Positions 6,471 through 62,077 of a stretch of 64,000 nt of DNA are shown here, piece by piece. Below the pieces are notes generated by a model. It was given only the letters and a program-made list of their open reading frames with translations, made no database searches and had not been told where the DNA came from. Position 1 is the first letter of the stretch, and every line of letters starts with the position of its first letter. Source of the stretch: Eledone cirrhosa. Lineage: Eukaryota. A program made the position numbers and the translations under genes. Where the stretch lies: positions 352,160,001 to 352,224,000 of the forward strand of contig OZ024743.1 of assembly GCA_964016885.1 (NCBI GenBank). Reading direction: 5' to 3'.

Positions 6471-7411
<941 letters not shown>

Positions 7412-25560: not shown

Positions 25561-25577
25561 ATATATATATATATATG

Positions 25578-26095: not shown

Positions 26096-26157
<62 letters not shown>

Positions 26158-27455: not shown

Positions 27456-27542
<87 letters not shown>

Positions 27543-28880
27543 ATATATACATATAAATGTATATATATATACATATACACACACACATATATATATAAGA
27601 AAATACATAAATATTATCTAATATATATTTGTGAAATGGGCGGTGGCTGAAATTCAAATGTGCACGGTTAAATGGTAGTAGACGTGGTCGGACGGACGTG
27701 AAAATTTACACACCTATATAAAAAGTACCAAGGAAGCAAATAGACGAGGTGTCAAATCTCTAACTTGAAAAATGTGGTCCCTGGGGTCCCAAAACTATCG
27801 CGTTCGGTGAGTTATTTCCCCCTGTTCTAATACTTTTGTCTAAAAAAACATATCAAAGACAACGTTATTTCGCTGTTAATAAACTTTTGGCTACTACAGT
27901 ACGTTTCATTTTCATTTTTAAAATACAATTGCTCTATATTAAATTTAAATAATTCTATAACGATCATACAGTACTGTTTTATGAAATCGATTCTGCAGTA
28001 GAATTTTACGAAATGCCAAATCGAAAAAGTAACTGTTTTCTAACAAAAGAAATAAAACCCATACATTGCGAACCCTCTGTTCTAATACTGGGGTTAGTTA
28101 TTTCCCCCTCTTCTAATAAATATCTAATGCTGACCAGGGCAATCAAAGTGTAAACTATCATACAGTACCGTTTTATGAAATCAATTCTGCAGTACCATTT
28201 TACGAAATGCCAAACCGAAAACAGTCACTGTTTTCCATCAAAAGAAATAAAACCCTTAAATTGCGAAGAAGGGAGTCATGTTCTCAAGTACGTTTTTTCA
28301 GATATCATTTTCATTTTATTTCTAATATATGTTAACCACAACTAACAGTAACTAGTATTTTTCAATTCATTGTCTTATTTAAAATAACATATCAAAGACC
28401 ACGTTATTTCGCTGTTAATAAACTTTTGGCTACTACAAGCTTCCATGGTTACGGAGAAAATCGATGAAACAGGAATTTCCCATTCAAATTGAACTGAGAG
28501 TAATCTGTGAACGCAGAAGTAAATATTTCGAGAAACGTTGCAACCAAACGAAAACAGGAAGACGATATTTTGGTTCGTGAAGACGTTCCCTGGCAAGGAA
28601 CGGGAAAAAAGCGAGGATAATACATCGTTATGTGGAGCGTGAAGAACAATTTCATACAAAGACAAGTTTATGGTATAAATGGAGTCGTTAGGCTAATATT
28701 CTATTTAAAATAACAGAATGGTTTCCAGCCCCGGATTTTAAGAATGATGTAAATAAAATTGAAAACGAAAATGACAGAGGTTATTAAAATAGTAAAAGTA
28801 AATAGTGAAGATTTAGGCCAGTACATACGTATGCCCCGACGAATATACACATACATACGCACACACAAATACACACACAC

Positions 28881-32615: not shown

Positions 32616-32919
32616 CAAATTTTGCAAAGAGAAGAAAACGGACAAATGAACTAGATACATCTCACTGTCCCCCACCACCACAATAATGTCTACACTCTCT
32701 CCCCACCATCACATGTCATTACCCTATCTAGACTAAAGTCATCGACCTGTTGTCAAACTCTCTACTCTGTATTGAATGTGTATATATATGTATGTAGGAG
32801 GTGAGTTTTATTGTAGTACAATAAAGCAATGCAGATATCGGATAAGAAGCACTCTACTGTTTGTAGGACTGGAGTATACATAATATATAAGATCAAAAGA
32901 TGGTTAAATGAGTGCCATG

Positions 32920-32990
32920 TATTTTATTATGCGCATTTCAAAAACAAATATCATCATGCAATAACATTTGTGTTTTCATCAGATAAAATA
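32920..32990 (-). ncRNA. Type I hammerhead ribozyme
   Basis: Mirror image of 33115-33185. Confidence 0.85.
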
Positions 32991-33114
32991 GGAAGACATG
33001 ATATGAAGGTTAAAAACACTTGTGGATAGTGCAGTTTTAAATCAACATATCAATATATGTTGATTTAAAACTGCACTATTCACAAGTGTTTTTAACCTTC
33101 ATATCATGTCTTCC

Positions 33115-33185
33115 TATTTTATCTGATGAAAACACAAATGTTATTGCATGATGATATTTGTTTTTGAAATGCGCATAATAAAATA
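33115..33185 (+). ncRNA. Type I hammerhead ribozyme
   Basis: TATTTTAT-CTGATGA-AAACACAAATGTTATTGCATGATGATATTTGTTTTT-GAAA-TGCGCA-TA-ATAAAATA. Confidence 0.88.
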
Positions 33186-33559
33186 CATGGAACTCATTTA
33201 ACCATCTTTTGATCGTATATATTATATATATATGTATGTATATGTGTGTATATACATCACTCAGTCAAACGACCAGATTTCAACCCCAACATCTACAACA
33301 CCGGCACTAATGTTTACAGCAACAACAGCTTCAGAATGAATTGAAATGAACATTTACAACAACAACAACAGCGGCATAAAACGATAACCCCCCCCCCCCC
33401 AAAAAAAAAACCACACAAACAATAAAAAAAGCTCAAAATAACAAAACACACACACACACGCACACAACACAACAACAACATCAACTGCCACCACCACCAC
33501 CGCCGCCGCCATCACCATCACCAGCGACCGGGCCTTAAGAAAACAACTTCAATAATAAT

Positions 33560-34139: not shown

Positions 34140-37100
34140 GACATAGAAATAATCGGGCTGGATGCCCGATCGCGCAGTTAAACCACTGGGAGTGCAGAAC
34201 CCCTAGCCCTTGTCAGAGCATTCTTCTAGGAGAAGGCATCTCAGGAAACTGGGTTAACTCTGACATAAAACCTACGGCTCAGTAGTTACCGATGATGTCG
34301 ATCTTTTCTTCTTTTCGGGTTATAGCTACTGTCGCTCAGAGAGTGGGATTGGCTCAGTGCACAGTCTTTCCTCACTTTAAAAATATTCGTCACGCACAGG
34401 CATTGCACGAGTGCATTAATAATTATTAATAGTGTATTATTATTATTATTGTTACTATTATTATTACTTTTCTTTTTCTTTTTTTCTTATTCAATGATGT
34501 TCCAGAACAATATAAAAGAGATAATTGGCAATTTAGGTTCTGGAACAAAAAAGATAATTGGCAATGAGGGCCCGCTCGTCATCGTGCCATTGTAATAGAG
34601 CCAAACAGTCTTGGCTGCTGGAGCGTACGGACGCTGCTTGACAGGAATTCCTTGGAGCGTCCTGAACGAAGGACCGCTCTTGTTGCAAAGGAGCTTCGAC
34701 GTTACGATCTTGACTTTATCTGAGACGAGGTTAGCTGGAGATGGTCATCTTACAGAATTTTGTGGAGAATATACATTCTTCTGGAAAGGAAGAGATGAAG
34801 GAACCAGAAGAGAGGCTGGGGTAGGATTTGCTGTTAAGACTGTTCTTGTGAATAAATTAGAAGAATTCCCAGTAGGGATTAGTGAGCGTCTTATGTCCAT
34901 GAGAATTCCGCTGGACAAAGGAAGATATGCGACCCCGGTGAGTGTGTATGCTCCAACTATGAATTCTGTCGATGAAGAAAAAGTGTCCTTTTACCATGCC
35001 TTGAAAGGTGTTTTAAGAAATATCCCTCAGGCAGACAAAGTCATCGTGCTTGGTGACTTTAATGCTAGAGTGGGTAGGGATTTTAACACATGGAATGTAA
35101 TCGGAAGGCATGGGGTGGGAAAGTGTAACAACAATGGTATGCTCCTCTGCAGATGTGTGAGGAGCTGGATCTGCGTGTTACCAACACCATGTTCCAACAA
35201 AAGAACAAATTCAAGACCACATGGATGCACCCTGCATCTAAGGAATGGCATCTTTTGGACTACGTCCTAGTCAGGATGCGTGACAGACAGGATGTGCAGT
35301 GTGTTCGTGCTCTTCGTGGAGCTGAGTGCTGGACGGACCACCGCCTGGTACGCGCAAAAGTGAAACTAATCACTAAACGTAAAATCCGGGCTCCTGGTGT
35401 TGCTCTGCCCAAAAGATTGAATGTTGCTCGTCGTAAGGATAAAAATGTGAAGAGGACATTGGAAGAAGAGATGCAGGCTGCAGATCTTGGTGAGGATTGG
35501 CCGATCCTTAAAAAGTCGGTTTATGATGTAGGCATGCGTGTTCTGGGATTGGTGCAGAGAAAACATCAGGACTGGTTTAATGAGAATGATGTACATATAG
35601 AAGACTTGTTGGCTGATAAGAGGCGTGTTACTTGACGGCAAAACCACAGGAGAGGAATACGTTGCATGAGGAACTCAAGGGTGTAAAATTACGTGTTAGA
35701 CGGAGTCTTTCTCAGATGAAGGATCAGTGGTGGAGTGAGAAGGCTGGTGAGATACAAACTGCGTCAGATTCCAATAACACAAAGCTGTTGTACAGTCTCT
35801 TGCGTGAGGTTTATGGACCGTCTTCTTCTCTGGTGACACCGCTTCGCAGCAAGGATAGCAAAGAACTTCTTCGTGACTCACAAGGAATTCTACGAAGGTG
35901 GCGAGAGCACTTTGATGATCTTTTGAATCAGCCGTCTGTCGTCAGTGAAGATTTCCTCAATCTCATTCCAGAAAGTCCTGTGAAAGTAACTCTCGCAGAA
36001 CCTCCGACGCTTGTGGAGGTTGCAGTGGCTATCTCGAAGCTGAACAGTGGAAGGTCTCCAGGTATGGATGGCATACATGCTGAGCTCCTACAATATGGTG
36101 GTGAGTGACTTCTGCAACATCTTCACTCTTTGTTTGGCAGGATATGGGCTAATGAATCCGTACCTGAGGACTGGAGAGATGCAGTAATGGTGGTCTTGTA
36201 CAAGGGAAAGGGTAACAGGAATGATTGTGGGAACTACAGAGGTATATCATTGCTTTCTGTCGTAGGGAAAGTTTTATGTAGGGTGCTTCTGGACCATCTG
36301 CTGACACACATTGCAGATTGTGTTCTTCCTGAAAGTCAATCTGGTTTTCGTGCTGGACGCGGCACTACTGATATTATTTTCTCAGCTAGACAGCTCCAGG
36401 AGAAGTGCATGGAATAGGGTTTGGATCTGTATCAGGTTTTTGTCGATCTGACAAAAGCTTTCGATACTGTTAACAGAGGTGCATTTTGGAAGGTTCTCCA
36501 GACACTTGGTTGCCCTGATAAGTTCCTTGCTTTAGTTAGGTCTTTCCATGACGACATGAAGGCTTGGGTTAATGTCGGAGGTAACATGTCGGAGCCTATC
36601 TCAGTAAAAAATGGAATGAAACAGGGGGATATTCCAGCACCGACCCTGTTTGCCATATAATTTGCAATGGTTTTCTGTATTGCATTCAGGAATTGCGAGC
36701 ATGGTGTTTACATCCGATATCGAACCTCAGGCAGCATATTTAACATCAGGCGCTTTGCTGCAAAGACAAAAGTATTTACATCAATCATAAGAGACCTCTT
36801 GTATGCAGATGATTGCGATCTTGTAGCGCACACAGAGAGTGATATGCAGCACATTTTGAATGCATTTTCTGACGCTTGCACTGCCCTAGGATTGACTGTC
36901 AGTCTCAAGAAAACCGTCGTCATGTACCAACCTGCCCCTGGTAAGCAGTACACTGAACCAAATATCTATGTGTATGGTAAACGACTTGGAGTGGTTGATC
37001 AATTTGTCTACCTGGCAAGCACTGTCAATCGATACGGCAACCTTGACAGTGAAATCTCCCTTAGGATTAGGAAAGCAAGTGATGCTTTCGGAAAGCTAGA

Positions 37101-37990
37101 AAGGGGACTCTGGGGTCGGCGAGACATATGCAGGAGGACAAAGGTAAAGGTATACAAGGCATGTGTGCTCTCTTGTCTTCTTTATGCCTGCGAGACCTGG
37201 GTCACATATCGACACCACCTTAAGCAATTGGAGCGTTTCCATCAGATGTGTCTCAGATGGATCCATGGCGTTCACTGGAGGGACCACATCAGTGATGTCG
37301 AGATTTTTGAAAGCTGTATGTGTGACAGTATAGAAGCTCTTGTGCTTAAGCAACGACTCCGTTGGAGTGGTCACCTTGCCAGGATGAAGGATTCTAGAAT
37401 ACCAAAACAACTCTTTTATGGAGAGTTGGTTAAAGGAAAACGACCGCCACATAAACCAAAAAAGAAGTATAAGGATTCGTTGAAAGCCTCTTTGAAAGAC
37501 GCTAACATCTCTGCTGATACATGGGAAAATATTGCTGTTGATTGTAATAGATGGAGAAAGACTGTATATGAGGGAAAAGTTGCCTTTGAGGCATCTCGAA
37601 TCGCATACGAGAAAGTAAAGCGGGATGTGAGGAAGGGCATTGCTGTTGCACTTCCAGACGGCGAGGGTCCTCCTATGGTGCTGACATGCAGCGTCTGTGC
37701 GAGACTCTGCCTAAGCAAAGCTGGACTGGAAAGTCATTTTCGCAGTCATAAAGTAAGGCCAGTGGTTGACTATCAGACTGCTGTTAGAGATGCTACTCAT
37801 CATGCTTGCCAAGCATGTGGTAGAGAATGTAAATCAGCAGGAGGGCTCAAACGACATGCAAAAGTACATGAACTCCAACCACAGCCGGGTATTCGCAGTG
37901 AATGTTTTGGTTGCCGACTCTGTGCAAGACATTTTAGATCATTGGCTGGGCTAAAAAGCCACATTCGATCGCAGCGCTGTTAGTTGCTAT
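34140..37990 (+). mobile_element. Near full-length RTE (BovB-like) LINE: APE, RT and C-terminal C2H2 fingers; inactivated
   Basis: APE motifs LSETRL, SVYAPT, LGDFNARVG and WTDHRLV. RT motifs NYRGISLL, FVDLTKAFDTV and LLYADD. Three C-x2-C...H-x3-H fingers at the C-terminus. Several stops and frameshifts. Confidence 0.93.
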
Positions 37991-38381: not shown

Positions 38382-38532
38382 ATATTGTTATACTTTGGGA
38401 GGGTCATGTTGCCAATAAGAAACACACGCACCAGTTGCTTTCACTTCAATTTATTATAATAAATTGAAGTGAAAGCAACTGGTGCGTGTGTTTCTTATTG
38501 GCAACATGACCCTCCCAAAGTATAACAATATA
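38382..38532. repeat. Perfect ~150-bp palindrome, centre ~38457
   Basis: ATATTGTTATACTTTGGGAGGG...AATTTATTATAATAAATT...CCCTCCCAAAGTATAACAATAT. Confidence 0.9.
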
Positions 38533-38676
38533 TATATATATATATATAATGTAGGAGGTGAGTTTTATTGTAGTACAATAAAGCAATGCAGATATCGGAT
38601 AAGTAGCACTCTACAGTTTGTAGGACTGGAGTATAAATAATATATAAGATCAAAAGATTGTTAAAAGAGTTCCATG

Positions 38677-38747
38677 TATTTTATTATGCGCATTTCAAAA
38701 ACAAATATCATCATGCGATAACATTTGCGTTTTCGTCAGATAAAATA
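38677..38747 (-). ncRNA. Type I hammerhead ribozyme in the inverted pLTR
   Basis: Minus strand reads TATTTTAT-CTGACGA-AAACGCAAATGTTATCGCATGATGATATTTGTTTTT-GAAA-TGCGCA-TA-ATAAAATA. Confidence 0.88.
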
Positions 38748-39250
38748 GGGAGACATGATATGAAGGTTAAAAAACACTTGTGAATAGTGCAGTTTTAAAT
38801 CAACATATGAAACGTAGTTTTAGATTGATGTGTGATATTGGGAAAAAAAAAATTGAGGGGGGGGGGGGGCGGGGTTGGAAAGGATGAAAAAGAGGAGGAG
38901 ATGAGAGTAAAAAGTGGAGGGGAGGAGTATAATGAGGAAGGATGAGATAGGAGGAGAGATGGGTGATAGAGAGAGAGAGATATCTTTTATAACTGAGAAA
39001 AATATATTGTTTTACATAGAGAGGTTAAAAAACCGTTGGAAGATAATATATAAATTAAAAGAATTTGAAAATTAACGAAGAGAAAAATTTAGAATAATGT
39101 TAAATTAAGGTTTGTATATTGGAGGGTTTAATAATATGGGCGATGAAAAGAAATTGTTAATATGTATTAAGAATAATATTTAAGGGTTTAATAATATGTG
39201 CGATGGAAAGAAATTGTTGATATGTATTATTAAAAAATGGTACTTCTGAA

Positions 39251-40930
39251 GTGATTGGTTGGTTCAACAAATTGAATAAGAAAAACAAACAAAAATTTAT
39301 TCAATTTGATATTGCCAGCTACTATTCTTCTATTTCGCCCTCACTTCTCAACAATGCTCTATCTTTCGCTTACAAATATTCAGACATCACCACATATGAA
39401 CTTCACATCATTCTCACCGCACGTAAAACCATCCTACAGTTCAAGAATGAATATTGGACCAGAGCTGATACCTCTAACAACTTTGACATCACAATGGGAG
39501 CATCCGATTCATCCCAATTGACAGATTTAATTGGTATCTTTATTTTGAACTCTTTGAATCGGAAAATTCCTCAACTTCGCGGTGGAATTTATCGTGACGA
39601 TGGACTCTTTACTATCTTAAATTGCAACATAGTTAACCTTAATATTATTAAGAACAATATACGTAATCTCTTTAACCAACATAACTTAAAAATTGAATTT
39701 GATAACAGCATCAAACTAGCTAATTTCTTGGATGTATCTCTTAATCTTGACACTGGCCTATATTACCCTTACCATAAAAACAATGAGAACCTAAATTATG
39801 TTAATTTTAAATCTAACCACCCCACTAATATTAAGAATGCTATAGTTAGTAATATTGGAAAAAGAATATCCAACCTATCTTCTAATAAAAACATCTTTGA
39901 TGCTAACGCCAATTACTATAATAACGCGCTTTCTAAAGCCGGTTATCCTGATAAAATCAAATATAGTAAAGAAACAAATGCTAGAAGATCTTACAGTAGA
40001 ATAATTAATCATGATCATTCCAATAATTTTAATAAAAGACCTAGATACAAAAGCATAATCTGGTATAATGCTCCTTTCTCCATCTCTATTAATAATAATA
40101 TTCCTAAATTATTCTTTAGTGCCTTAAATAAATGCTTCCCTCCCTCACATATCTATAGTAAAATATTTAACAAACACACTATAAAATTTTCCTATTCGAC
40201 CTCCTCCAACATCTCCAACATTATCTCTAAACACAACAATAAAATACTAAATACTAAATCTCTTCCTTCCAACACTGAATATCATAATAATAGTAATAGT
40301 ACTCCCGACGTCATTGTTAACTCTAGGCTAATTTCTGCAAACCCAAATACAACGTCAAACGCAACTTCGTTAAATGTTCTCAATCCCATTCTAAATCAAG
40401 AAACTATTATTCCTATCGTAAATAACTTCTCCAATCCAATTCCTTCTATAGATAACAGTAGGTCACTTGTTAATAACTCTGTTAATTTCTCTAATCGCAA
40501 TTGTAATTGCCCTGTTAAAAATAAATGTCCTCTCAACAACCATTGTCTTGAAAAAAACTTAATCTACGAATGTAAAGTTATAACTGACACCAATTCCTTT
40601 ACCTATTTTGGCTCCACTTCCACCTCCTTTAAAGCTCGTCTTTATAATCATCATTCGTCTTTTAAATACCAACTTAAAAGAACCAACACGGCACTCTCAG
40701 AACTCATATGGTGCTTGAAAGACAAACATATTAACTATAACATCTCTTGGAAGAAGGTTTGTTCTGCTTTTCCATACTTGAATAATTCTCTATCCAAGAC
40801 ATGCAATCTCTGTTTATGTGAAAAATTTACCATTATATCTAATTTAGATCCTATAATAAATAGACGCACTGACTTGTTTTCGCTCTGCTTTCATAAATTC
40901 CACAGAACATTCCATAAAGTATACAGCTAA
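39251..40930 (+). CDS. Penelope-like RT + GIY-YIG endonuclease ORF (5'-truncated, uninterrupted for 559 aa)
   Basis: Motifs FIQFDIASYY, FDITMGA, GGIYRDDGL, ANFLDVSL, CNCPVKNKCPL, LIYECKV...YFGST...FKARLYNH and CNLCLCEK. Confidence 0.85.
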   Translation: MIGWFNKLNKKNKQKFIQFDIASYYSSISPSLLNNALSFAYKYSDITTYELHIILTARKTILQFKNEYWTRADTSNNFDITMGASDSSQLTDLIGIFILNSLNRKIPQLRGGIYRDDGLFTILNCNIVNLNIIKNNIRNLFNQHNLKIEFDNSIKLANFLDVSLNLDTGLYYPYHKNNENLNYVNFKSNHPTNIKNAIVSNIGKRISNLSSNKNIFDANANYYNNALSKAGYPDKIKYSKETNARRSYSRIINHDHSNNFNKRPRYKSIIWYNAPFSISINNNIPKLFFSALNKCFPPSHIYSKIFNKHTIKFSYSTSSNISNIISKHNNKILNTKSLPSNTEYHNNSNSTPDVIVNSRLISANPNTTSNATSLNVLNPILNQETIIPIVNNFSNPIPSIDNSRSLVNNSVNFSNRNCNCPVKNKCPLNNHCLEKNLIYECKVITDTNSFTYFGSTSTSFKARLYNHHSSFKYQLKRTNTALSELIWCLKDKHINYNISWKKVCSAFPYLNNSLSKTCNLCLCEKFTIISNLDPIINRRTDLFSLCFHKFHRTFHKVYS

Positions 40931-41305
40931 TATCTAATACTTTACCAATTTAAAATCCTTTTCTCAAAGGCACATATATATATATATACATATATATTTC
41001 TTTAAAAATATACCCATCTTTCTACCTTATTTCAATGTTATTTATTATACATTATATAATACTAGTTACTCATTCTATATCACTCCTATTTATCACTTCC
41101 CTTTCTTTCTTTTTTCCTTTTTTCTTTTCTTTTTTCTTTTAATTTCTAACCTCTAATCTGTACCTTTTCTTCCTAGATACTTCTCAATTCTCATTATTAC
41201 CCACCACAATATATCCTTACTTTATATCACCTTGAAAAATCCTTCGTAAACATAAACATTTTTTTGACGTTAGATTATTCATCATCAATTCATTATTTTT
41301 TTCTC

Positions 41306-41490
41306 GGATTGGCAGTATCGGTAGAGGGTCGGACGCCATGCTTTCCAGCATAGTTACGTCCTTTTACGATCTGAGTTCAAATCCCGCCGAGGTTGACTTT
41401 GCCTTTCATCCTTACGGGGTCGATAAAATAAAGTACCAGTAATGCACTGGATAATTGCTGGCCTTGTGCCTAAAGTAGAAACAATTATTT
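41306..41490 (+). mobile_element. tRNA-derived SINE inserted in the Penelope 3' UTR
   Basis: Nearly identical to the copy at 16919. Confidence 0.88.
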
Positions 41491-41805
41491 TTTTCTCCCT
41501 TTCATGCTCAACTAACTTATACATATTACACTTATTCATCCACTCTACTTCTTTTCACAATATATCCTTAATTACATTACTATTGTTATATTTTTATATT
41601 TTTTAATAATACATATCAACAATTTCTTTCCATCGCACATATTATTAAACCCTTAAATATTATTCTTAATACATATTAACAATTTCTTTTCTTCGTAATA
41701 TTATTAAACCCTCCAATATACAAACCTTAATTTAACATTATTCTAAATTTTTCTCTGCGTTATATAAGGTATGTATATACGTTCAACAATCTGGCAGGAA
41801 GTTAT

Positions 41806-41848
41806 ACGTTGCTGACGATAGCTAACAAGCTTGAAACTAGTACAGCGT
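41806..41848 (+). ncRNA. Minimal type I hammerhead ribozyme (inverted unit)
   Basis: ACGTTG-CTGACGA-T AGCT AACA AGCT T-GAAA-CTAG-TA-CAGCGT. Confidence 0.88.
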
Positions 41849-42780
41849 TCCTTTGTCAGTGTTGAACAAACGAGCAACGGTGGTTGCTAGACACTACGGC
41901 TTAATACAGGATGTTTGTTTACAAACACACCGAGCGTTATAATAAATGTGCGGTGACTCCATACGTGCATATAAATATATGTGCATGTATGTATATATAT
42001 ATATACATACTACTGTACGTCTGTATACATATATGTATGTACGTGTACATACTTATATTTAAGTAAAAGCCGTACTAAGAATGGGAAATGAAATTTCGTT
42101 TCATTTTTTCCGTTTATCGTTTTCCCACACTTAGTACGGCTTTTACTTAAATATAAGTATGTACACGTACATACATATATGTATACAGAGGTACAGTAGT
42201 ATGTATATATATATATACATACATGCACACATATATATATGTACGTGTGGATTCACCGAACATTTATTATAATGCTCAGCGTGTTTGTAAACAAAGATCA
42301 CGTATTAAGCCGTAGTGTCTAGTAACCATCGTTGCTCGTTTGTTCAACACTGACAAAGTAACGCTGTACTAGTTTCAAGCTTATTAGCTAACGTCAGCAA
42401 CGTATACCCACCTGCCAGATTGTTGAACGTATATACTTACCTTATGCATATTAACGGCTGAGTAGCCCAATTTGCATATCGAGTGGGTTAATCGGCCGGG
42501 TGCACTGAAAACGATAAACGGAAAAGATGAAACGAAATTTCATTTCCCACTCTTAGTACGGCTGTTACTTAAATATAAGTATGTACAGGTACATACATAT
42601 ATGTATACAGACGTACAGTAGTATGTATATATATATACATACATGCACACATATATATATGCACGTATGGATTTACCGAACATTTATTATAATGCTCGGT
42701 GTGTTTGTAAACAAACATCCCGTATTAAGCCGTAGTGTCTAGCAACCACCGTTGCTCGTTTGTTCAACACTGACAAAGGA

Positions 42781-42823
42781 ACGCTGTACTAGTTTCAAGC
42801 TTGTTAGCTATCGTCAGCAACGT
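42781..42823 (-). ncRNA. Minimal type I hammerhead ribozyme
   Basis: Reverse complement of 41806-41848. Confidence 0.88.
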
Positions 42824-43199
42824 ATACCTTCCTATCAGATTGTTGAACGTATATATTACCGTATGCCTATTAACGGGTGAGTAGCCCAATTTGCATATCG
42901 AGTGGGTTAATCGGCCGGGTGCAACGAAAACGATAAACGGACAAAATGAAACGATATTTCATTTCCCACTCTTAGTACGGCTGTTACTTAAATATAAGAA
43001 CGTACACGTACATACATATATGTATACAGACGTACAGTAGTATGTATATATATATACATACATGCACATATATATATATTCACGTATAGATTCACCGAAC
43101 ATTTATCATAATGCTCGGTGTGTTTGTAAACAAACATCCCGTATTAAGCCGTAGTGTTTAGCAACCACCGATATTCGTTTGTTAAACACTGACAAAGGA

Positions 43200-43242
43200 A
43201 CGCTGTACTAGTTTCAAGCTTGTTAGCTATCGTCAGCAACGT
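43200..43242 (-). ncRNA. Minimal type I hammerhead ribozyme
   Basis: Reverse complement of 41806-41848. Confidence 0.88.
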
Positions 43243-43619
43243 ATACCTTCCTGCCAGATTGTTGAACGTATATATTTACCTTATGTATATTAACGGCTGA
43301 GTAGGCCAATTTGCATATCGAGTGGGTTAATCGGGCGGGTGCACCGAAAACAATAAGCGGAAAAAATGAAACGATATTTCATTTCCCACTCTTAGTACGG
43401 CTGTTACTTAAATATAAGTACGTAAACGTACATACATATATGTATACAGACGTACAGTAGTATGTATGTATATATACATACATGCACACATATATATATG
43501 CACGTATGGATTCACCGAACATTTATTATAATGCTGGGTGTGTTTGTAAACAAACATCCCGTGTTAAGCCGTAGTGTCTAGCAACCACCGTTGCTCGTTT
43601 GTTCAACACTGACAAAGGA

Positions 43620-43662
43620 ACGCTGTACTAGTTTCAAGCTTGTTAGCTATCGTCAGCAACGT
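43620..43662 (-). ncRNA. Minimal type I hammerhead ribozyme
   Basis: Reverse complement of 41806-41848. Confidence 0.88.
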
Positions 43663-44039
43663 ATACCTTCCTGCCAGATTGTTGAACGTATATACTTACC
43701 TTATGCATATTAACGGCTGAGTAGCCCCATTTGCATATCGAGTGGGTTAATCGGCCGGGTGCAGCGAAAACGATAAACGGAAAAAATGAAACGATATTTC
43801 ATTTCCTGCTCTTAGTACGGCTGTTACTTAAATATAAGTATGTACACGTACATACATATATGTATACAGACGTACAGTAGTATGTATATATATATACATA
43901 CATGCACATATATATATATGCACGTATGGATTAACCGAACATTTATCATAATGCTCGGTGTGTTTGTAAACAAACATCCCGTATTAAGCCGTAGTGTCTA
44001 GCAACCACCGTTGCTCGTTTGTTCAACACTGACAAAGGA

Positions 44040-44082
44040 ACGCTGTACTAGTTTCAAGCTTGTTAGCTATCGTCAGCAACGT
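44040..44082 (-). ncRNA. Minimal type I hammerhead ribozyme
   Basis: Reverse complement of 41806-41848. Confidence 0.88.
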
Positions 44083-47000
44083 ATACCTTCCTGCCAGATT
44101 GTTGAACGTATATACATACCTTATGTATATTAACGGCTGAGTAGGCCAATTTGCATATCGAGTGGGTTAATCAGGCGGGTGCACTGAAAACGATAAACGG
44201 AAAAAATGAAACGATATTTCATTTCCCACTCTTAGTACGGCTGCTACGCTATCTGTTCCGTCTCTATATATATCTCTTACTCTTTCGCTTTGCACTCCTC
44301 CCCTTCAATACCATCTCTCCCCCTCTCTATATATTTGTTACTCTATCGCTGCACGCTCCTCTCCTTCAATATATCAATTACACACGCTTTACACTCCTTT
44401 ATCCCCAGCGCCCCTATATATACACCCCCCCTCTCCCGCATCTATATTTTAATGTACCGTTGCACCGTGAATATATGTGTCTATATATATATACATATAT
44501 ATTGTATATACACATTCATGTATGTGTATACACACTCATGTATGTATATACACTGGTTTTATGTGTGTATTGTAAATTTGTACTGTTAAAACACGAAACT
44601 AACATTCGATTGACACTTTGATTACCTGTACAGGCAATAGTTATTAGAATGCTGTTGAAGTGTGTATATATTTTAGGGGGACATCCTGTATATACACACA
44701 TTATATATAATACAATAAACAGATAAATACACACATATATATATGAGCTTATTTAATTATAAATATTGTGAATTTTTAACTCAGTTCAATTATATATATA
44801 AATGGCTTCTACAGGACTAGAACTGTTTCATTCGAAAGAAATCATCATAATATTGAGAGGGGGGACTAGATAAAATATTTCAAATCAAATGTGTATAAGT
44901 TATAAGTTAAAATGTATAAATAGAGACGATAGTGGAGGTATATCTGTTTAGTGGAACAGTAGACGATAGAATTAAATACAGACGAGAATCTCCCTTTAAT
45001 GAAATAGCAGACGATAGAATTAAGGCAATTTAAATTTTAAGCATTTGCATTTTTGCCTTTCATCGTTACGGGGTCGATAAAATAAAGTACCAGTAATACA
45101 CTGTCACTAGACGACTTTCAAATTGAATTGTTGGTTCCATTTCTTTAGTATTTTCAATTGTAGTTATCTACTTAAAAAGCGTTACACGGTTAGAGACATA
45201 ATTCGTAAGTTATATCTTCCCTATTAAACCATTGCATTATTTCGCCTACAATAGAACAAAAATGAAATGTTCTTTAAAGAAACAGGAATATAACTTTATA
45301 AAAAAAAAAGTTGCATCCGCTTCTTTTATCATTGATAATTTTTTCGTTTTAATATTAATTGTTTTTTGTAGTTGTTTATATTAAAAATCTTACTGTAATA
45401 TTTACTTAAACGAAGGCAAACATCTAAACTTATAGATTAATCTTCTGCGAAGGACTAGATAAATCTCTCTCTCTCTCCCTCTCTCCCTCTCTCTCTCTCT
45501 CTATATATATATAAACGAAGAATGATAAAATTTCAAGCAAAGAGTTTAATTAGGTATATTTTGTAATATTATTAACTAATTATTATAATTAACGCGCATA
45601 TTTTGCTATCCTCAAACACGTTTACACATGGCATGAAATATAACTAATCCGAGATGGCTAGGTTTCATCTTCTAACTGGATATACGAAATCCATTATGTC
45701 TTGACAACAACATGAGGTAACATTATGTTATTCACAGACACACTTTGTACACTGTTCCATATCAGAATGTATTTCCTTCGTCACATTCACAAACAGTATT
45801 GAAAATATGTTCTTCGGCAAATAAAAATGTTTTGTTCATAATATTTCAACTAGCGATTGCTCTACTCCACGCACGACCACCATAAATTAATGACCAGCTC
45901 AACACAAGTATTGGTAGAGCGTCAGACACCATGCTTTGCAGTATTGTTATGGTCCTTTGCATTCTAAGTTCAAATCCTGCCGAGGTTAACTTCGACTTTC
46001 ATACTTACTAATTCGATAAAATAAAGTACCAGTAATGGACTGCCGTAATGGATTTGTGCCGAAAAATAGAAACACTATTAATGTGCAATAAAAGCAAAAT
46101 ATAACGACATTGCTCAATTATTTTATCTAATGTTGTAATAACACAAGGAAATGTTGTTTGTGTATTTTTTTTTATATTTGCTCATAGGCTTTTACAATTT
46201 CGCTCAGCCAACAACTATTAAAAAGTGAGTTGCTTAAGATAACAATTTAATCACAAATTGTTGCTATCTTTTAATACACTCCAACAAGTCATCAAATTAT
46301 GTACAATAAAAACAAATCTTATTAATTTGCTCAGGGAATATAAAGAAAATGTATATACACTGATAATTGCAATTGTATGTAAATATTTTGTTTATGTATT
46401 GTATATTTTATGTTTTCTATTATGTATAATATATTGATTTAATATTGATTGTTTTTTGTAGTTGTTTATATTAAAAGTCTGAAAATATTTTTATACATCT
46501 TACACTAATATTTATAAGATAATTTATAATAACAATTACATAATCTAATTACATTACAACGATAATTTATTATTAATATATATCCTGTTTAACTAGAGTT
46601 ATTACAAGCGTTGCCTTAAAAAAATATTAAACTAGACATGAAAAATGCGCAAGCTCAAAAGTGCCACAGAATGTTATAATAAACCTTCAAAAGTGTGGGA
46701 CTAGAGTTGTTGCTAAAAAATATTGTAATCATTATATATCGTACATTCTGTGGCATCCTTTATAAAAATAGCTTAAACCAACGAAGCCTTTATTTTTACG
46801 CTATTTCACTTAGTTAATTCTTAGAGTGTAACATATAAAAATAAATACATCTATGTTTAATGTAATAACAGCTATAAATAATTACGTAATATTATTATCA
46901 TATACTCATAGTAACAAAATAATTGTGTTGAAACTTAATATGATGCTTATATGAACGATCAAATCTATAATGATAATTTCTTAAATATACTAATAGTAAA

Positions 47001-47743
47001 ATAATTTAGTTATCTATTGTTACATTTTCATAGAACTATAATATTAACAATCGTATTGCATTATCAAATTTTTATCACTACAAACTTTCATATTGGAATT
47101 ACCTTAAGCCACTTATTATTACTTCGCTTTCGTACTTTTACAGCTGTAGATATTGCGCTGTATCTTATATCTAATATCAATATCTCGTGGTAATTTGCAT
47201 GAAGTGTAAAATAGGTTTATTAATAACTTTAATATGAAATGTATTATACAGGGCTGCGGAGTCGGCCAAAAATTGACTGGCTCCAACTCAGGATCCGATA
47301 CTCCATTATTTCCTAAATTTCAGCTCCGCATATTAATTAATTTATTTTATAGTTGTAAATCATATTTTTATATGTTACACTCTAAGAATTAACTAAGTGA
47401 AATAGCGTAAAAATAAAGGCTTCGTTGGTTTAAGCTATTTTTATAAAGGATGCCACAGAATGTACGATATATAATGATTACAATATTTTTTAGCAACAAC
47501 TCTAGTCCCACACTTTTGAAGGTTTATTATAACATTCTGTGGCACTTTTGAGCTTGCGCATTTTTCATGTCTAGTATATATATGTGTGTATATATTGACA
47601 GAACTATAGGGACATATTAATTTGTCCATTTTTTCTTTCAGACACATACACATACACAGACACACATTGGACACAACCATCCACAACCATCTGATGGTTG
47701 TGTATGGTTGTGTTTAGAAACATTTTGATGACACCCCCATTAG

Positions 47744-47787
<44 letters not shown>

Positions 47788-49060
47788 ATATCTCCCCCCC
47801 CCTCTCTTGCTGCCATACCAATTCATCGCATCAATAGAAGTTTAGTAAATACATTTTTAATAATACTTTTGCAAGCAAACACGTATACACATCATACCTT
47901 TATAATCAAAAATATATAATAATTATTTAAAATAACATAACAGGGGTCGACGTCCTGTTCAATAGGCCGTCCTCGTCAGAGTATTTCTCATTTAAAAAAA
48001 TATAATTTAATATGTAACTATCAAGCAATGACCATGCTGTGAATTATGTTTCAGAGCCATTCAATTGTCATATTTACAGGTGAGACAGGTTTTCTTTGTC
48101 ACACACACACGCATATATATACACACACACCTTACCACCCGGCCCACACCCCACCTCTTCACCATAGACATTAAATCCCTCTAAACAGTCATTCCCTACG
48201 CCGACAGCCTACGCGCCCTCCGGCACTACCTCGACCTTCGTCCCTCCCCCGTCCCCTCGGCCCCACCTCCTCTGCCTCGTCTTCCTGTCTTCCTCCAGTT
48301 GCAACGTTTTTCGAAATATTTACTCCTGCGTTCACAGATTGATTTTTTTAGTTTCAGATCCCGTTATGGGTGAAAGCAGCGATTCTTTGCTTAAACTTTA
48401 ATCTGTTATTTTAATAAATATTTGCTCTACGGTACTTATATATTTGATATATATTTATCCTTATCGAGCCCTCTTTGGATTTTAGTCTTCAAATTTATTA
48501 TTATTACTATATATATAATATTTCCAAATTGAAGGATGAGTATTTAAAACTTTATTTTATCATGAGTTAAGGCTCTATTGATTTTTCCCTGGATTTCACT
48601 AAATTCTGTTGGATGAATCTATATCCTGATTCTTTTTGAATTGAGTTTGAATTATTTTTCCCGCATCTTACGTTAACTATTTTCCCATTTTGACGCTATA
48701 GTCACTTATATATTATGAAATACTGTGTGCTCCTTGCTCATAATAATTTCTATACTTTTCATTTATATTTATACTCGGATTTCTTTCCTAGAGTGCTTAA
48801 ATTATTTGTGACTAATCCTGATCTTTTTTTAAAAAAACCGCGATAATATTGCTTTTTCTGAACTCCTTATTGTAGAGTTTTTTTCGGAATGTTTGTGACT
48901 GTTATTTCATGTAAACAAACATATGTCTCATTCTGACGTCACCAGCCCTGTCTCCACATGTGCGTTTTATTTTCATAATTACGCATGATGTTGAACTAGC
49001 CTGCTTTTAAATTCCCTTTCTGGCATATTATAATCAGTGAGATTTTGGTTATCGTGTTGA

Positions 49061-49140
49061 GCTCTGCTGATGATCTAATCCAACCGTGACCATCGCCACT
49101 GAAAGTTTCGTGAAATAGTTTTTTCAAGACTATACAGAGC
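49061..49140 (+). ncRNA. Type I hammerhead ribozyme (duplicate of 22186-22265)
   Basis: Same motif; one C->T change in stem III leaves a U-G pair. Confidence 0.72.
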
Positions 49141-49391
49141 ATTTGTAGTTTTTCCAAATTGAAGGATGAATATTTTAAACTTTATTTTATCATGAGTTAA
49201 GGCTCTATTGATTTTTTCCCTGGATTTCACTAAATTCTGTTAGATGAATCTATATCCTGATTCTTTTTGAATTGAGTTTGAATTATTTTTCCCACATCTT
49301 ACGTTAACTATTTTCCCATTTTGACGCTATAGTCACTTATATATTATGAAATACTGTGTGCTTCTTGTTCATAATAATTTCTATACTTTTC

Positions 49392-49465
<74 letters not shown>

Positions 49466-51357
49466 TTTATATCGTGATGACTGTCTTCTTCTTTCCACTA
49501 ATCTTAGCCTATCAGCAATTGAAAAAAATAAAAAACTTATTAGAACTTTCCTCAAAGACTATTACAATCTCACTATTACATTTGAAAACACCAGTAAAAT
49601 AGTCAATTTCCTAGATATAACTTTAGACTTGTCTACGGGAATCTACCAACCTTACCATAAACCTGACCAAAATTTACATTACATACACTCACAATCCAGT
49701 CACCCTAGATCTATCCTTAAAAACCTAGCATATAATATCTCACTCAGAATCTTTAACCTTTCATCTTAAACAAATTAGTCTATATACCTTGCACCAATAA
49801 TACTTCAAACATACAACCCAATATTACCAACAAACACCAAATGAAAAACCCACACCTAAATGCTACTCATACTACACCCAAAAATACCAACCTAAAACTT
49901 AATTTCTCTACCTCTTCTCACATAAAATATAATGACTTTCAAAAAACCATTCATCCTAATAATACTCCAATATATGTTAACAACATTACTAACAAAATTC
50001 CTAATAATCAGACTAAAACACCTAAATCAGTCAATCTAACTAAACCTATATATAATAAATTCACTAATAGTAACTCTCTTAGTAAACATCCTGATACATC
50101 GTATAAATATTTTTAAAAAATATCGAAACCGTAATAGACGGGTTACTTGGTATAATGCTCCATTTAATCTACGAATTAAAGATAATATCCTTAAAAAGTT
50201 TTTTACTATCCTAGAGAAAAACTTCCCGCCAAACCATAAATACCATCAAATTTTAAATAGATCAACTGCCAAATTTTCATACTCCACTACCAAAAATATA
50301 CAACAAAATATAAGTGCGTACAACACATATAAATGTTAAAAAAAATCAAATATACCACTAACACATCAAACCAACCATAATACTAAAATAAACCGCAACA
50401 AACCACCATCTCCTTCACCTGTAACAAGTCGAGTAACTCCCCTGATATAATATTCACGAGTGGTTGTAACTGTAGAATCAAAAGAAATTGCCCATTAAAA
50501 GGAAATTGTCTTATTAATAACATAGTCTATAAATGTAAAATTAGCACTAAGGACTCCACTTATTCATATATAGGAGCTATGTCTAACCAATTTAAAGTAA
50601 CATAGTTTTAAAAATGCTGCATTAGCTAATACAACATCCTTGGCTGAAACAATTAATAATTATAGAAAGAAGAATATCGATTACAACCTGACCTGGAGTG
50701 TGCTCAAAAGGGCCACCCCTTATCAAAATAACAGATACGAGTGTAGACTATGCTCCCAGGAACTTTTTGAAATCATGAACTCTAAGGATATCCTATTAAA
50801 TAAGCGACAGGAATTAATTATATCTTGTAATCATAGAATTAGAAGAACCTTCAAATATTATAAACCTAATTAATATACACCTTACACTTATATTTTAAAT
50901 ATTATTATAATTAGTTTTTTAATTTAGTTAACCTATAATTAGTACTTTACTACAGAGAACTTCATAATTTTATTTCCCTCTTACAGCTCTCTTTTCCGAA
51001 AAATTATTACCTAAAAGTATACCTATAAATTAATTTAATTTGCTGTTATGAATCTAGATTCCTTGTAGTTTATATAAGATTGGTATTTCTCACTACTACC
51101 CCTATCCCTATAACATCAAATTTTCGTGTACCTTTCACTGGCTTGATCTCTTTTCATCCCCAAAGTATTCTTTTCATTCAAAGTATTCTTTTCATTCAAA
51201 ACATAAGTCTGCACTCCTCTACCCCTAAATTAAATTTCTACTACTACTATTCTATCAACTTGACCTCTAACTACTTTTCTATTGGTCAATTCAAAACCTG
51301 TTCCCAAGCAGACCTTTTATATTAAATCTTTGTTGGTTTTTGTTTCAATAAACAAAT

Positions 51358-51495
51358 TTCATCATTTCTGAAGACAGCATATATATGTGAAGGTATGTAT
51401 ATTTCCTCTGATAGTTTGTAATATTTTTACATAGATCTATATGATATACATACCAACACACATATACATCCTAGAAACGATCGTAAAATGATGAA
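51358..51495 (+). ncRNA. Type I hammerhead ribozyme (duplicate of 24479-24616)
   Basis: Same motif. Confidence 0.8.
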
Positions 51496-51635
51496 TTTTT
51501 TAATATAAGGAACTTGTTCTTTGTTTTTATTTCATTGCTTTTATTAATTTATATATATATATATAGTTATGTAATATCCACACATGCACACACGCACATA
51601 TACATACACATACACATATACACACACATACACAT

Positions 51636-51694
<59 letters not shown>

Positions 51695-51990
51695 CATACA
51701 TACACACATACATACACGTACAAATACACATACACACAAATACACAAACGCACACACACACATATATATATATATATGTATGTAATTGCGTGTGTGTGTG
51801 CATGTGTGTTTATTTTTCCTTTCCTTCTTCCTTTTCCAGCCTCACTTTCATATAGATTATATATTTGTTTTTAAAATCTAATGTCAATAAATACACCAGG
51901 ATTTTTTCATTCTGATAATTGAAAGCAAAATTTGTTTGCTTTCAAGAAACCACTGGTAAATGAAATAATTGCCTTATGTTGTTTATTACA

Positions 51991-52070
<80 letters not shown>

Positions 52071-52126
52071 CATACATACACACATACATACACATACAAA
52101 TACACATACACACAAATACACAAACG

Positions 52127-52210
<84 letters not shown>

Positions 52211-52893
52211 TGTAATAAACAACATAAGGCAATTATTTCATTTACCAGTGGTTTCTTGAAAGCAAACAAATTTTGCTTTCAATTATCAGAATGAAAAAAT
52301 CCTGGTGTATTTATTGACATTAGATTTTAAAAACAAATATATAATCTATATGAAAGTGAGGCTGGAAAAGGAAGAAGGAAAGGAAAAATAAACACACATG
52401 CACACACACACGCAATTACATACACACACATATATACATACACATATATATACATATATATATATATATGCATACATACACATATACATACACGTACAAA
52501 TACACATACATATACATATACATACATACACACACACATATATATCAACATATCTATACATAGATACACACAAATACACAAGCACAGACACATGTATATA
52601 TTTCTCTCTAAGGCGGGTAAAATTCCCGAGATCCATGGACGAGTTCTCTTCAGCGGTCTCTGTCCATCATTATCGCTGCCATGTCCTGCGTCTCCACCAG
52701 ACCAGTGTCTGTCCTTAGGGCATCAACATACGTTAACCTTGGTCTTCCTCTTCTAGTGTGTCCATGTAGGGGCATATATATATATATATGTGTAGAAGTT
52801 ATATTTAACTTGTTGGGATACAACAAGCAACAAATTATTGGAGTAAAAATACAATATATTAACAAATGGAAACTATATTTATAAAACCATATT

Positions 52894-52959
52894 TATTTCA
52901 TTATACATATTTCAGGGATATCATATTAACAATATGTTATGCCTTCCTCAGACAAAATA
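52894..52959 (-). ncRNA. Type I hammerhead ribozyme (duplicate of 25681-25746)
   Basis: Same motif; the mutated mirror copy lies at 53113-53178. Confidence 0.78.
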
Positions 52960-53532
52960 CAATATAGACAGTTTTATAGATAAATAGATTTGACATACCG
53001 TTCAACATCGACTTGTATTTGAAAAAGTTGATTTAGCAGATCAACTTTTTCAAATACAAGTCGATGTTGAACGGTATGTCAAATCTATTTATCTATAAAA
53101 CTGTCTATATTGTATTTTGTCTGAGGAAGGCATAACATATTGTTAATATGATATCCCTAAAATATGTATAATGAAATAAATATGGTTTTATAAATATAGT
53201 TTCCATTTATTTAATATCGTAAATATACTCCAAATACTTGTTGAGTGCTTTTATATCAGTTATAAATATTTACTAGTTGTAACCCAACAATTTAAATATA
53301 ACTTTCCATATATATATATATATATATATATGTAGATAAATCTACCAAGAGTTTACGGTAGTGTCCAATCCGTATGAAGAACTCAATGTAATCCGGATAT
53401 CATGGAAAGAAGAGATGCAATGAAAAATCACTTTCGGTGAAAGATAAACGGAATACAGAGTCAAGATAAAATATAAAAAAAATAATGAATAAAACAATGA
53501 AACAGTTCCTTATATTAAACAAAAAAAGTTCA

Positions 53533-53839
53533 TTATTTAACGATCGTTTCTGGGATATATATGTGTTAGAATTGGCATGTATATTTAACAGATCTATGTA
53601 CAAAATTATACAAAATTATACAAACTATCAAAATTAAATATACATACCAACTCATATATATGCCGTCTTCAGAAATAAAATTATAATAATGATTATTTCT
53701 GAAGACGGCATATATATGAGTTGGTATGTATATTTAATTTTGATAGTTTGTATAATTTTGTATAATTTTGTACATAGATCTGTTAAATATACATGCCAAT
53801 TCTAACACATATATATCCCAGAAACGATCGTTAAATAAT
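53533..53839. ncRNA. Back-to-back hammerhead pair at 53533-53678 (-) and 53692-53839 (+), duplicate of 26356-26662
   Basis: Same motifs. Confidence 0.78.
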
Positions 53840-53896
53840 GAACTTTTTTTGTTTAATATAAGGAACTGTTTCATTGTTTTATTCATTATTTTTTAA

Positions 53897-54016
<120 letters not shown>

Positions 54017-54536
54017 CATAATTGTATCTACTTTAGGCACAAGGCCAGCAATTAACCAGTGCATTACAGGTACTTTATTTTATCGACCCCGTAAGGATGA
54101 AAGGCAAAGTCAACCTCGGAGGGATTTGAACTCAGATCGTAAAGGGACGTAACTATGCTGCCAATCCACCGCCCTATATATACATACACATAATCATACA
54201 TATATACACACGTACATACACACATATACATACACACATATATACACGCATACATATGCATACACAAATATAGATATATGTACACACACCTACATACGCA
54301 CACACACAATTAATTATAAGAAAAAATATGATAATAAAAATATCGTCACATAAGAATAAAAATAAATGTAAAAATTATTATAAAGTTGACAGCGATACAG
54401 GCAACAAATAAATGAACAAACACACGTGGTAAGCAATACACACAATTGCACATACACATACATACATAAAAATAAATACATACACACACACAAACATACA
54501 TATGCATATATACATACATACACATATACATACACG

Positions 54537-54573
<37 letters not shown>

Positions 54574-54674
54574 GCACATACATATACACACACACATACA
54601 TATAAATACATACACACACATGTATGTGTTTAAAACTCATTCTTAGATGTATTCATTGAATCTTGTTTAACTCT

Positions 54675-54745
<71 letters not shown>

Positions 54746-55041
54746 GAAACAAAATGAAAACGAAATTTCATTTCTCACTCTTAGTATGGCACTTACTTAA
54801 ATGTAAGTATGCATGTATACGTACATACATATATGTATACAGACGTACAGTAGCATGCACATATATATATATATATACATATATATATACATATGCATAC
54901 AGGTACACATACATATATGCACGTATCAGTTTAGCGGCGCTAACATCGCTTTGTTCGTTTGTAAACAAACTGAACAGCCTGAATTTATGCCATACGGTGT
55001 TAAGGCAACCACGTCACCTTTTTGTTCAACACTGACACAGG

Positions 55042-55086
55042 AACGATGTACTAGTTTCAAGCTTGTTAGCTATCATCAGCACCGTT
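55042..55086 (-). ncRNA. Minimal type I hammerhead ribozyme
   Basis: Minus strand reads AACGGTG-CTGATGA-T AGCT AACA AGCT T-GAAA-CTAG-TA-CATCGTT. Confidence 0.9.
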
Positions 55087-55507
55087 TACCCATCTGCCAG
55101 ATAGTTGAACGTTCGAAAGTATATACTTTCCTTATGAAAATTAACGGCTGAGCAGCCTAATTTGCATATTGAGTGAGTTAAATCGGTCAGGCATACCGAA
55201 AACGATAAATTGAAACAAAATGAAAACGAAATTTCATTTCTCACTCTTAGTATGGCACTTACTTAAATGTAAGTATGCATGTATACGTACATACATATAT
55301 GTATACAGACGTACAGTAGCATGCACATATATATATATATATACATATATATATACATATGCATACAGGTACACATACATATATGCACGTATCAGTTTAG
55401 CGGCGCTAACGTCGCTTTGTTCGTTTGTAAACAAACTGAACAGCCTGAATTTATGCCATACGGTGTTAAGGCAACCACGTCACCTTTTTGTTCAACACTG
55501 ACACAGG

Positions 55508-55552
55508 AACGATGTACTAGTTTCAAGCTTGTTAGCTATCATCAGCACCGTT
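55508..55552 (-). ncRNA. Minimal type I hammerhead ribozyme
   Basis: Identical to 55042-55086. Confidence 0.9.
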
Positions 55553-55973
55553 TACCCATCTGCCAGATAGTTGAACGTTCGAAAGTATATACTTTCCTTA
55601 TGAAAATTAACGGCTGAGCAGCCTAATTTGCATATTGAGTGAGTTAAATCGGTCAGGCATACCGAAAACGATAAATTGAAACAAAATGAAAACGAAATTT
55701 CATTTCTCACTCTTAGTATGGCACTTACTTAAATGTAAGTATGCATGTATACGTACATACATATATGTATACAGACGTACAGTAGCATGCACATATATAT
55801 ATATATATACATATATATATACATATGCATACAGGTACACATACATATATGCACGTATCAGTTTAGCGGCGCTAACGTCGCTTTGTTCGTTTGTAAACAA
55901 ACTGAACAGCCTGAATTTATGCCATACGGTGTTAAGGCAACCACGTCACCTTTTTGTTCAACACTGACACAGG

Positions 55974-56018
55974 AACGATGTACTAGTTTCAAGCTTGTTA
56001 GCTATCATCAGCACCGTT
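55974..56018 (-). ncRNA. Minimal type I hammerhead ribozyme
   Basis: Identical to 55042-55086. Confidence 0.9.
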
Positions 56019-56453
56019 TACCCATCTGCCAGATAGTTGAACGTTCGAAAGTATATACTTTCCTTATGAAAATTAACGGCTGAGCAGCCTAATTTGCATA
56101 TTGAGTGAGTTAAATCGGTCAGGCATACCGAAAACGATAAATTGAAACAAAATGAAAACGAAATTTCATTTCTCACTCTTAGTATGGCACTTACTTAAAT
56201 GTAAGTATGCATGTATACGTACATACATATATGTATACAGACGTACAGTAGCATGCACATATATATATATATATACATTCAGGCTGTTCAGTTTGTTTAC
56301 AAACGAACAAAGCGACGTTAGCGCCGCTAAACTGATACGTGCATATATGTATGTGTACCTGTATGCATATGTATATATATATGTATATATATATATATAT
56401 GTGCATGCTACTGTACGTCTGTATACATATATGTATGTACGTATACATGCATA

Positions 56454-56502
<49 letters not shown>

Positions 56503-57842: not shown

Positions 57843-57873
<31 letters not shown>

Positions 57874-58816: not shown

Positions 58817-58927
<111 letters not shown>

Positions 58928-58934
58928 CGTATAC

Positions 58935-58969
<35 letters not shown>

Positions 58970-58970
58970 T

Positions 58971-62039: not shown

Positions 62040-62077
<38 letters not shown>

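Follow-up and report, generated by a model that had tools for sequence, protein, structure and literature searches.

What is a 420-bp tandem repeat that carries a hammerhead ribozyme in every unit, and which enzyme copies it? This question is raised by a 64,000-nt stretch of the Eledone cirrhosa genome (assembly GCA_964016885.1, contig OZ024743.1, positions 352,160,001 to 352,224,000, forward strand), referred to here as the window. An earlier reading of the letters alone (the original prediction) had taken the repeat for a retrozyme, moved by a Penelope reverse transcriptase (RT). Both parts of that proposal are supported by the copy number, by helix covariation, and by inverted insertion ends of two kinds, long and short. 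We consider it probable that the repeat is a non-autonomous, non-coding retrozyme, whose transcripts would cleave themselves and circularise, the circles being copied in trans by a Penelope-like RT/endonuclease.

Six hammerhead motifs of the repeat locate in the window, five in tandem units on the minus strand and one in a plus-strand copy:

42121..44247, minus strand: tandem array, 5.1 units of 420 bp (period 420, 94% matches)
42361..42403, minus strand: hammerhead copy with an A9>U core change
42781..42823, minus strand: hammerhead copy, intact
43200..43242, minus strand: hammerhead copy, intact
43620..43662, minus strand: hammerhead copy, intact
44040..44082, minus strand: hammerhead copy, intact
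41764..42124, plus strand: opposite-strand arm, monomer positions 342-420 followed by 1-280
41806..41848, plus strand: type I hammerhead motif, predicted to be cleaved after 41842
41781..41867, plus strand: the same hammerhead including its extended helix I

This layout agrees with the original prediction of ~420-bp monomers, each with one minus-strand type I hammerhead, and of an inverted copy whose hammerhead lies on the plus strand, where the GUA of the cleavage site ends at 41842. The claim that four tandem copies and the inverted copy share the same ribozyme also stands, as the 43-nt motif is identical in five of six copies. The sixth, for which a core mutation had been noted, combines A9>U with a change in loop II and is likely impaired, to judge from these changes. 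The monomer is non-coding, as stated before (longest ATG open reading frame, ORF, 53 aa), and the GC content of the region is 0.37. No long terminal repeat (LTR) structure occurs at the mapped loci; primer-binding sites and polypurine tracts were not searched for. The predicted circular fold of the monomer has a z of -6.2 against 30 shuffles, for which an AT-rich hairpin is partly responsible.

The motif folds into a 6-bp helix I, a 4-bp helix II closed by a U-U mismatch, and a palindromic helix III of two pairs, and helix I is extended by 14-16 more pairs past an internal loop. The original prediction had described a 'minimal' hammerhead of the kind found in Penelope-like elements (PLEs). This has to be corrected: the predicted hammerhead of the 420-bp unit is of the canonical metazoan type I, which is expected to act as a dimer according to the part of PMC4209133 that describes it. 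Covariance-model scans with Rfam, proposed earlier as a check, gave no hammerhead match to the motif, one scan being limited to the best 150 of 253 rows.

The strongest evidence on the copying enzyme comes from the ends of dispersed insertions. We mapped 70 of 109 loci, 58 from the first 22 Mb of C1 and 12 others; the C1 loci took in the first 98 listed matches to a pattern of the 28 bases after the cut, overlapping loci and long arrays were left out, and microsatellite-only matches were filtered. At most of the loci sampled, a short dispersed copy is inserted in (TA)n. A 3' end, counted in nucleotides past the cleavage site, is visible in 126 of the 129 mapped arms; 55 end at about 214-217, 50 at about 273 and 21 elsewhere, and AT-rich DNA follows 96 of the 105 arms that end at the two sites. 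Thirty-nine head-to-head pairs were found, 13 with a damaged end and 26 with both ends at fixed sites. All 26 intact pairs combine a long with a short end (25 after dropping one duplicate, 0.5^25 = 3e-8). Among 38 arms without a mapped partner, three proved to have a short partner with a long end, and a fourth has a partner whose end is near-long. The segment between the two ends, referred to as the 'tail', and an adjoining hairpin locate as follows in one unit of the window:

43773..43832, minus strand: tail, ~59 nt between the short (about 214-217) and the long (273) 3' end
43841..43931, minus strand: AT-rich long hairpin (monomer 115-205)

The edges of the tail would be the start sites of reverse transcription, each just 3' of a predicted hairpin. 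In a second, 310-bp family, all eight complete insertions (nine fetched) are long+short, with ends at 139 and 165-170. In the Penelope family that neighbours the array, 22 of 26 further loci have their ends at 605-607 or 702-708 of the pseudo-LTR (pLTR), and six long+short pairs were seen in that family.

Could a microsatellite-targeting LINE (long interspersed element), for example an RTE, produce these ends instead? LINE-type RT fragments are present in the window, and twin priming by LINEs likewise yields inversions. Against such a mover, both arms start at fixed sites facing outwards onto (TA)n, like those of the host PLE families, and PMC11167929 describes the tail as found in PLEs only; we regard a LINE as very improbable. 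PLEs are known for inverted insertions that bear a tail at one of their ends (relevant parts of PMC8557442 and PMC3846280), and the tail spans two internal RT start sites of a predicted PLE dimer that nicks both strands (PMC11167929). The fixed double ends and the long+short pairing match this tail and therefore argue that a PLE protein copies the retrozyme RNA. Mobilisation of the 420-bp retrozyme by a PLE is thus very probable.

The original prediction had overlooked that a Penelope ORF lies just upstream of the array, and likewise a sister 466-bp insertion at 54742-56463. The Penelope element comprises:

39221..40930, plus strand: 5'-truncated Penelope-like ORF with RT motifs, a C-terminal GIY-YIG-type endonuclease and Hydra-clade motifs (no Pfam match)
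40931..41762, plus strand: 3' region and truncated pLTR, adjoining the retrozyme arm
38531..39238, minus strand: inverted pLTR with a long end on (TA)n and its own hammerhead at 38677-38747

Pfam scans recognised no domain in the ORF, which has 22 unnamed homologues at 32-41% identity. Its endonuclease with a CxCX5C linker, CxxC and CxH around E and N, together with the hammerhead and the (TA)n target of the element, are traits of the Hydra clade, an assignment made by motifs and without a tree. Naiads, too, target (TA)n in octopods, according to a supplement row. We also notice a solo inverted pLTR pair of the neighbouring Penelope at 32781-33230, with one long end, one short end and two hammerheads. 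A SINE-like (short interspersed element) 190-bp repeat is inserted in the Penelope 3' region (41306-41493; also 16928-17115 and others). Other Penelope-like fragments, at 22684-23973, 49563-50852, 12201-12572 and 8285-8431, are 37-53% identical to the neighbouring ORF. A different family forms inverted pLTR-like pairs at 25561-26112, 52774-53325 and 7344-7640, with long-helix-II hammerhead motifs at 25681, 52894 and 7539, and shows two recurrent ends about 100 nt apart at other loci. Penelope-retrozyme junctions (the window/L005 and L146) were considered as template switches that would prove the partner. Nested insertion plus deletion explains them equally, and they were not counted; nesting of this kind is seen at L147, and at L096 an insertion interrupts a PLE, with a duplication of 9 bp.

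Which form of the RNA is copied? The cleavage site is reached by 87 arms; 83 of them run through one cut, 21 through two and six through three, and the 5' end falls within about 6 nt of the site in two (2.5 expected). Since 5' ends do not pile up at the cut and the arms read through it, the main template is something other than cut linear monomers. Within arms, divergence tracks that between arms (rho 0.84, n=20; medians 2.6 and 2.7%), and 18 multi-unit insertions hold 239 singleton columns, 25 partly shared ones and 21 rare variants common to all units. The units of one insertion look like copies of one template. Neighbouring units in long satellites differ by 5.5-7%, which rules these satellites out as the donors. 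Among insertions of the 310-bp family, one comprises 26 full units, 18 of them identical, and a second shows the same 2-nt deletion throughout the 20 units of its two arms.

These data bear on a rival explanation, in which the PLE passenger is copied from an uncleaved linear multimer, transcribed from young homogeneous arrays, and the ribozyme serves some other purpose, such as RNA stability, export or a later step. It explains the cut-site read-through and the two ends equally well. The PLE known as PAc takes, and indeed prefers, unprocessed RNA in vitro, and no reads stopped at its cut site (PMC11167929). Homogeneous donors do exist, some young insertions being identical across loci (nearest distance 0.000), and expansion after insertion could also homogenise units. 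What speaks against the multimer is that no 5' pile-up marks a transcript start, that the long arrays are too heterogeneous as donors, that the 310-bp insertions have the uniform units described above, and that an uncut 27-mer of intact ribozymes in that family is hard to reconcile with selection for cleavage. We regard the linear multimer as rather unlikely. A circle most simply accounts for units drawn from one template, and for cleavage that is selected despite the lack of ends at the cut. Circular RNA is, on present data, a likely template.

The core pattern has 24,910 exact matches in the 3.0-Gb assembly (control 0), and the 28 bases right after the cut site have 26,047 (control 0). As the two counts are nearly equal, a large subfamily with a dead core is hardly to be expected. 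With decay taken into account, we infer roughly 50,000 units genome-wide. Related insertions and the second family locate as follows:

54742..56463, (TA)n on both sides: young insertion of a 466-bp sister subfamily, with a long-ended minus arm of 3.3 units and a short, short-ended plus arm
27459..27597: (TA)n without an insertion, in the duplicated counterpart of the 466-bp insertion site
C1:20777655-20779800 (L155, L103), C1:36482096-36490619 (L159) and others: younger 310-bp retrozyme-like family, with long homogeneous arms that reach 27 units and with ends at 139 and 165

The 466-bp subfamily is 75% identical to the 420-bp unit. Units inside its insertion in the window differ at 2 of 1107 positions, and the insertion is missing from the (TA)n of its duplicate twin, giving a filled and an empty site. 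The 310-bp family has 9,305 core matches genome-wide and aligns with the 420-bp family only over the 31-nt core; its helix II and its helix III palindrome differ there, with pairing kept. A search of metagenome contigs gave no match to the family.

The ribozyme itself carries the marks of constraint. One copy per locus gives 56 distinct copies, among which 94.2% of helix cells are paired. One helix I pair appears as U-G in 32, G-U in 16, A-U in four and C-G in one, and is unpaired in two. Twenty-two cells are altered on both sides of a helix pair (0 of 500 shuffles), and helix I covaries between the subfamilies. Within the core region, only position 7 and loop II are found among 50 common polymorphic columns, with a biased choice of loci; in unselected contigs of a deep sequencing run (X1), variants above 8% within the ribozyme are likewise confined to position 7 and loop II. 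Matching contigs (2-24) in three shallow runs under other organism labels may be carry-over and are not used as evidence for other species. The original prediction held that the ribozyme is conserved beyond the rest of the monomer. The direction holds in the window, where the five tandem copies have 2/215 mismatches in the ribozyme and 47/1390 in the rest, with a difference that is marginal on its own (P=0.054). Taken together, the pairing and covariation indicate that the hammerhead is almost certainly under selection.

A further explanation is a satellite derived from a dead Penelope pLTR and spread by recombination at the DNA level, with the ribozyme as a relic. It fits the later life of the long arrays, namely about 109 units at C4:351.90-351.94 Mb, a higher-order periodicity, and neutral decay of the core. 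It leaves unexplained the fixed 3' ends on (TA)n, the random 5' ends, the long+short pairs, the filled and empty twin sites and the helix covariation. No ORF-bearing element with such a pLTR occurs among the loci examined, and for dispersed copies the explanation is already contradicted. We find it scarcely credible.

On the basis of these results, we propose the following life cycle for the retrozyme. Transcription of tandem copies on the strand with the ribozyme would give an RNA that is cut every 420 nt by its hammerheads, which probably pair as dimers by way of their palindromic helix III, and a host ligase would close the monomer. The ends suggest that a Penelope protein, probably a dimer, would nick both (TA)n strands and begin its cDNAs on a single RNA, at two fixed internal positions separated by about 59 nt. 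The outcome is seen as DNA: two head-to-head arms of variable length, one long-ended and one short-ended, running across the cleavage site. Some arrays go on to reach tens of kb, with neutral decay of their units; a rearranged fragment of such an array lies in the window. In its fullest form, the insertions would record rolling-circle reverse transcription, in which a dimeric Penelope enzyme grips one circle at two sites, primes both (TA)n strands and rolls for up to 27 turns; at least two unrelated families of viroid-like circles would parasitise host PLEs in this way, seeding satellite DNA. We give this full version an even chance.

Several observations weigh against this reading. Regarding the ends, no inverted partner was found for 34 of the 38 checked arms, one Penelope pair has two long ends, and the tail lengths are unequal (59, 26 and 101 nt). 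Regarding the partner, the monomer has no convincing match to 18 regions downstream of other PLE endonuclease matches or to three pLTR-like repeats, a small sample, among which no parent pLTR was found. Regarding the template, one insertion has its 5' end at 3 nt from the cut, uncleaved RNA served a PLE in vitro and ribozyme mutations made no difference there (PMC11167929), and eight of nine Xenopus dimers failed to cleave in the part of 10.64898/2026.07.22.740005 that reports them; the circular RNA of the 420-bp family is itself inferred from DNA. Regarding selection, only two or three evolutionary events, not 20, stand behind the covarying pair, and the low core variation of dispersed copies (0.8 vs 8.3%) is inflated by the selection of loci. 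In three long arrays, core and rest vary by 4.3 vs 3.8, 2.6 vs 3.2 and 4.9 vs 3.0%, and the core is intact in 59 of 97, 23 of 31 and 17 of 31 units. The excess of core conservation expected by the original prediction thus formally failed in the long satellite arrays, where the core decays as fast as the rest. Such decay is the wrong test of the retrozyme reading: selection acts on source lineages, not on inserted copies at rest.

The window array belongs to such a satellite and is not a fresh insertion. It is the remnant of a longer old array, cut at 44248 by the junction of a 27-28 kb tandem duplication, and its lineage has lost the centre. At the sister locus (C4:351.90-351.94 Mb), the units end at 217 on (TA)n, and a second short-ended arm, also ending at 217, faces the array across about 580 bp. 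Because that locus (C4:351.94 Mb) keeps both ends and the spacer, the plus arm at 41764..42124 is likely a separate insertion whose own end and spacer were deleted. The last duplicate of the 27-28 kb duplication retains about 32 units. This duplication has at least four units (17354-44248 and 44249-64000 in the window), with its junction at the array edge. In long arrays, divergence is lower at lag 32 (C4, L150-L064) and at lag 8 (C28, L152-L153).

Other features of the unit and the window are as follows. An octamer motif occurs in each unit of the 420- and 466-bp subfamilies (42471-42478 and equivalents), and a splice-donor-like word lies around monomer 345-352; no role is supported for either. 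Newt satellite 2 has a promoter of the small nuclear RNA (snRNA) type, with an octamer and a proximal sequence element (PSE). Such a promoter was rejected here, as four host U2 genes lack an upstream octamer and no convincing PSE match was found. The U2 snRNA genes form a tandem array at C3:307349256-307453739 (period about 2.2 kb), in which two copies were checked and have no upstream octamer. An RNA polymerase III promoter looks unlikely from the T runs of the sense strand, judged by eye. More type I hammerhead-like motifs of other families lie at 3038-3085 in the window, and at L104:716, L034:190 and L028:1048. A broken LINE-like element (34599-37983; endonuclease-like, RT, C2H2 zinc fingers), which we take to be an RTE, an LTR-retrotransposon-like fragment with RNase H and integrase zinc-binding Pfam matches (15305-16093), and a 40-bp minisatellite of 10.8 copies (31670-32102 and 60631-61063) also lie in the window.

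How does the repeat compare with known systems? Like the animal non-LTR retrozymes given in the main texts of PMC7229834 (coral, mussel and axolotl) and 10.64898/2026.07.22.740005, it consists of non-coding tandem units of a few hundred bp with GC below 50%, one type I hammerhead per unit, thousands of copies, a self-paired predicted circle, and PLEs in the same genome. It thus bears the sequence-level marks of a non-LTR retrozyme: a predicted hammerhead per unit, a short non-coding low-GC unit, and a dispersed high copy number together with traces of retrotransposition. The U-U mismatch at the base of helix II is shared with axolotl HHR_Amex2. Unlike the known non-LTR retrozymes, these are new sequence families, of 420/466 and 310 bp, with no parent pLTR found, and are known here from DNA. 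Fixed double 3' ends, long+short head-to-head pairs and (TA)n targeting are unmentioned in the two main texts, as are cephalopods, tails and inverted pairs.

Like Hydra-clade PLEs, in the part of PMC8557442 that treats them, and PAc (PMC11167929), the retrozyme has inverted 5'-truncated arms that carry a tail at one end, presumed RT starts at internal positions downstream of the ribozyme, and (TA)n targets. Unlike PLEs, it has no ORF, a tail of about 59 nt rather than 30-40, and a short helix II in place of the long PLE type, and its arms circle the same unit many times. Its two starts are strictly paired, whereas in vitro work on PAc saw no pairing by strand (PMC11167929). It also resembles Chlamys/MRC1, described in part of PMC8557442 as non-autonomous PLE passengers with multicopy head-to-tail insertions. 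Chlamys elements mostly lack a canonical hammerhead and resemble the 3' end of their partner, whereas the retrozyme has a hammerhead and no resemblance to a PLE 3' end was found. A literature search, outside which lay most subscription journals and key supplements, found no description of the family or of tail-type ends on retrozymes, and in the accessible text of an Octopus vulgaris repeat paper (PMC13282606) the word 'ribozyme' does not occur. The repeat is a new family of a known retrozyme kind, and its insertion anatomy is the new part.

Copying of animal retrozymes from RNA circles by Penelope enzymes was proposed earlier on the grounds of co-occurrence and of kinship to pLTRs; the main texts of PMC7229834 and 10.64898/2026.07.22.740005 offer no evidence at the level of insertions. 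In both families described here, a non-coding RNA bears the footprint of the Penelope tail, which points to exact start sites, and the life-cycle question can therefore be taken to the in vitro PLE system that exists already. From the strict pairing of long and short ends one can see how two start sites may be used by a PLE dimer in vivo, and the insertions show a route from retrozyme insertion to satellite DNA.

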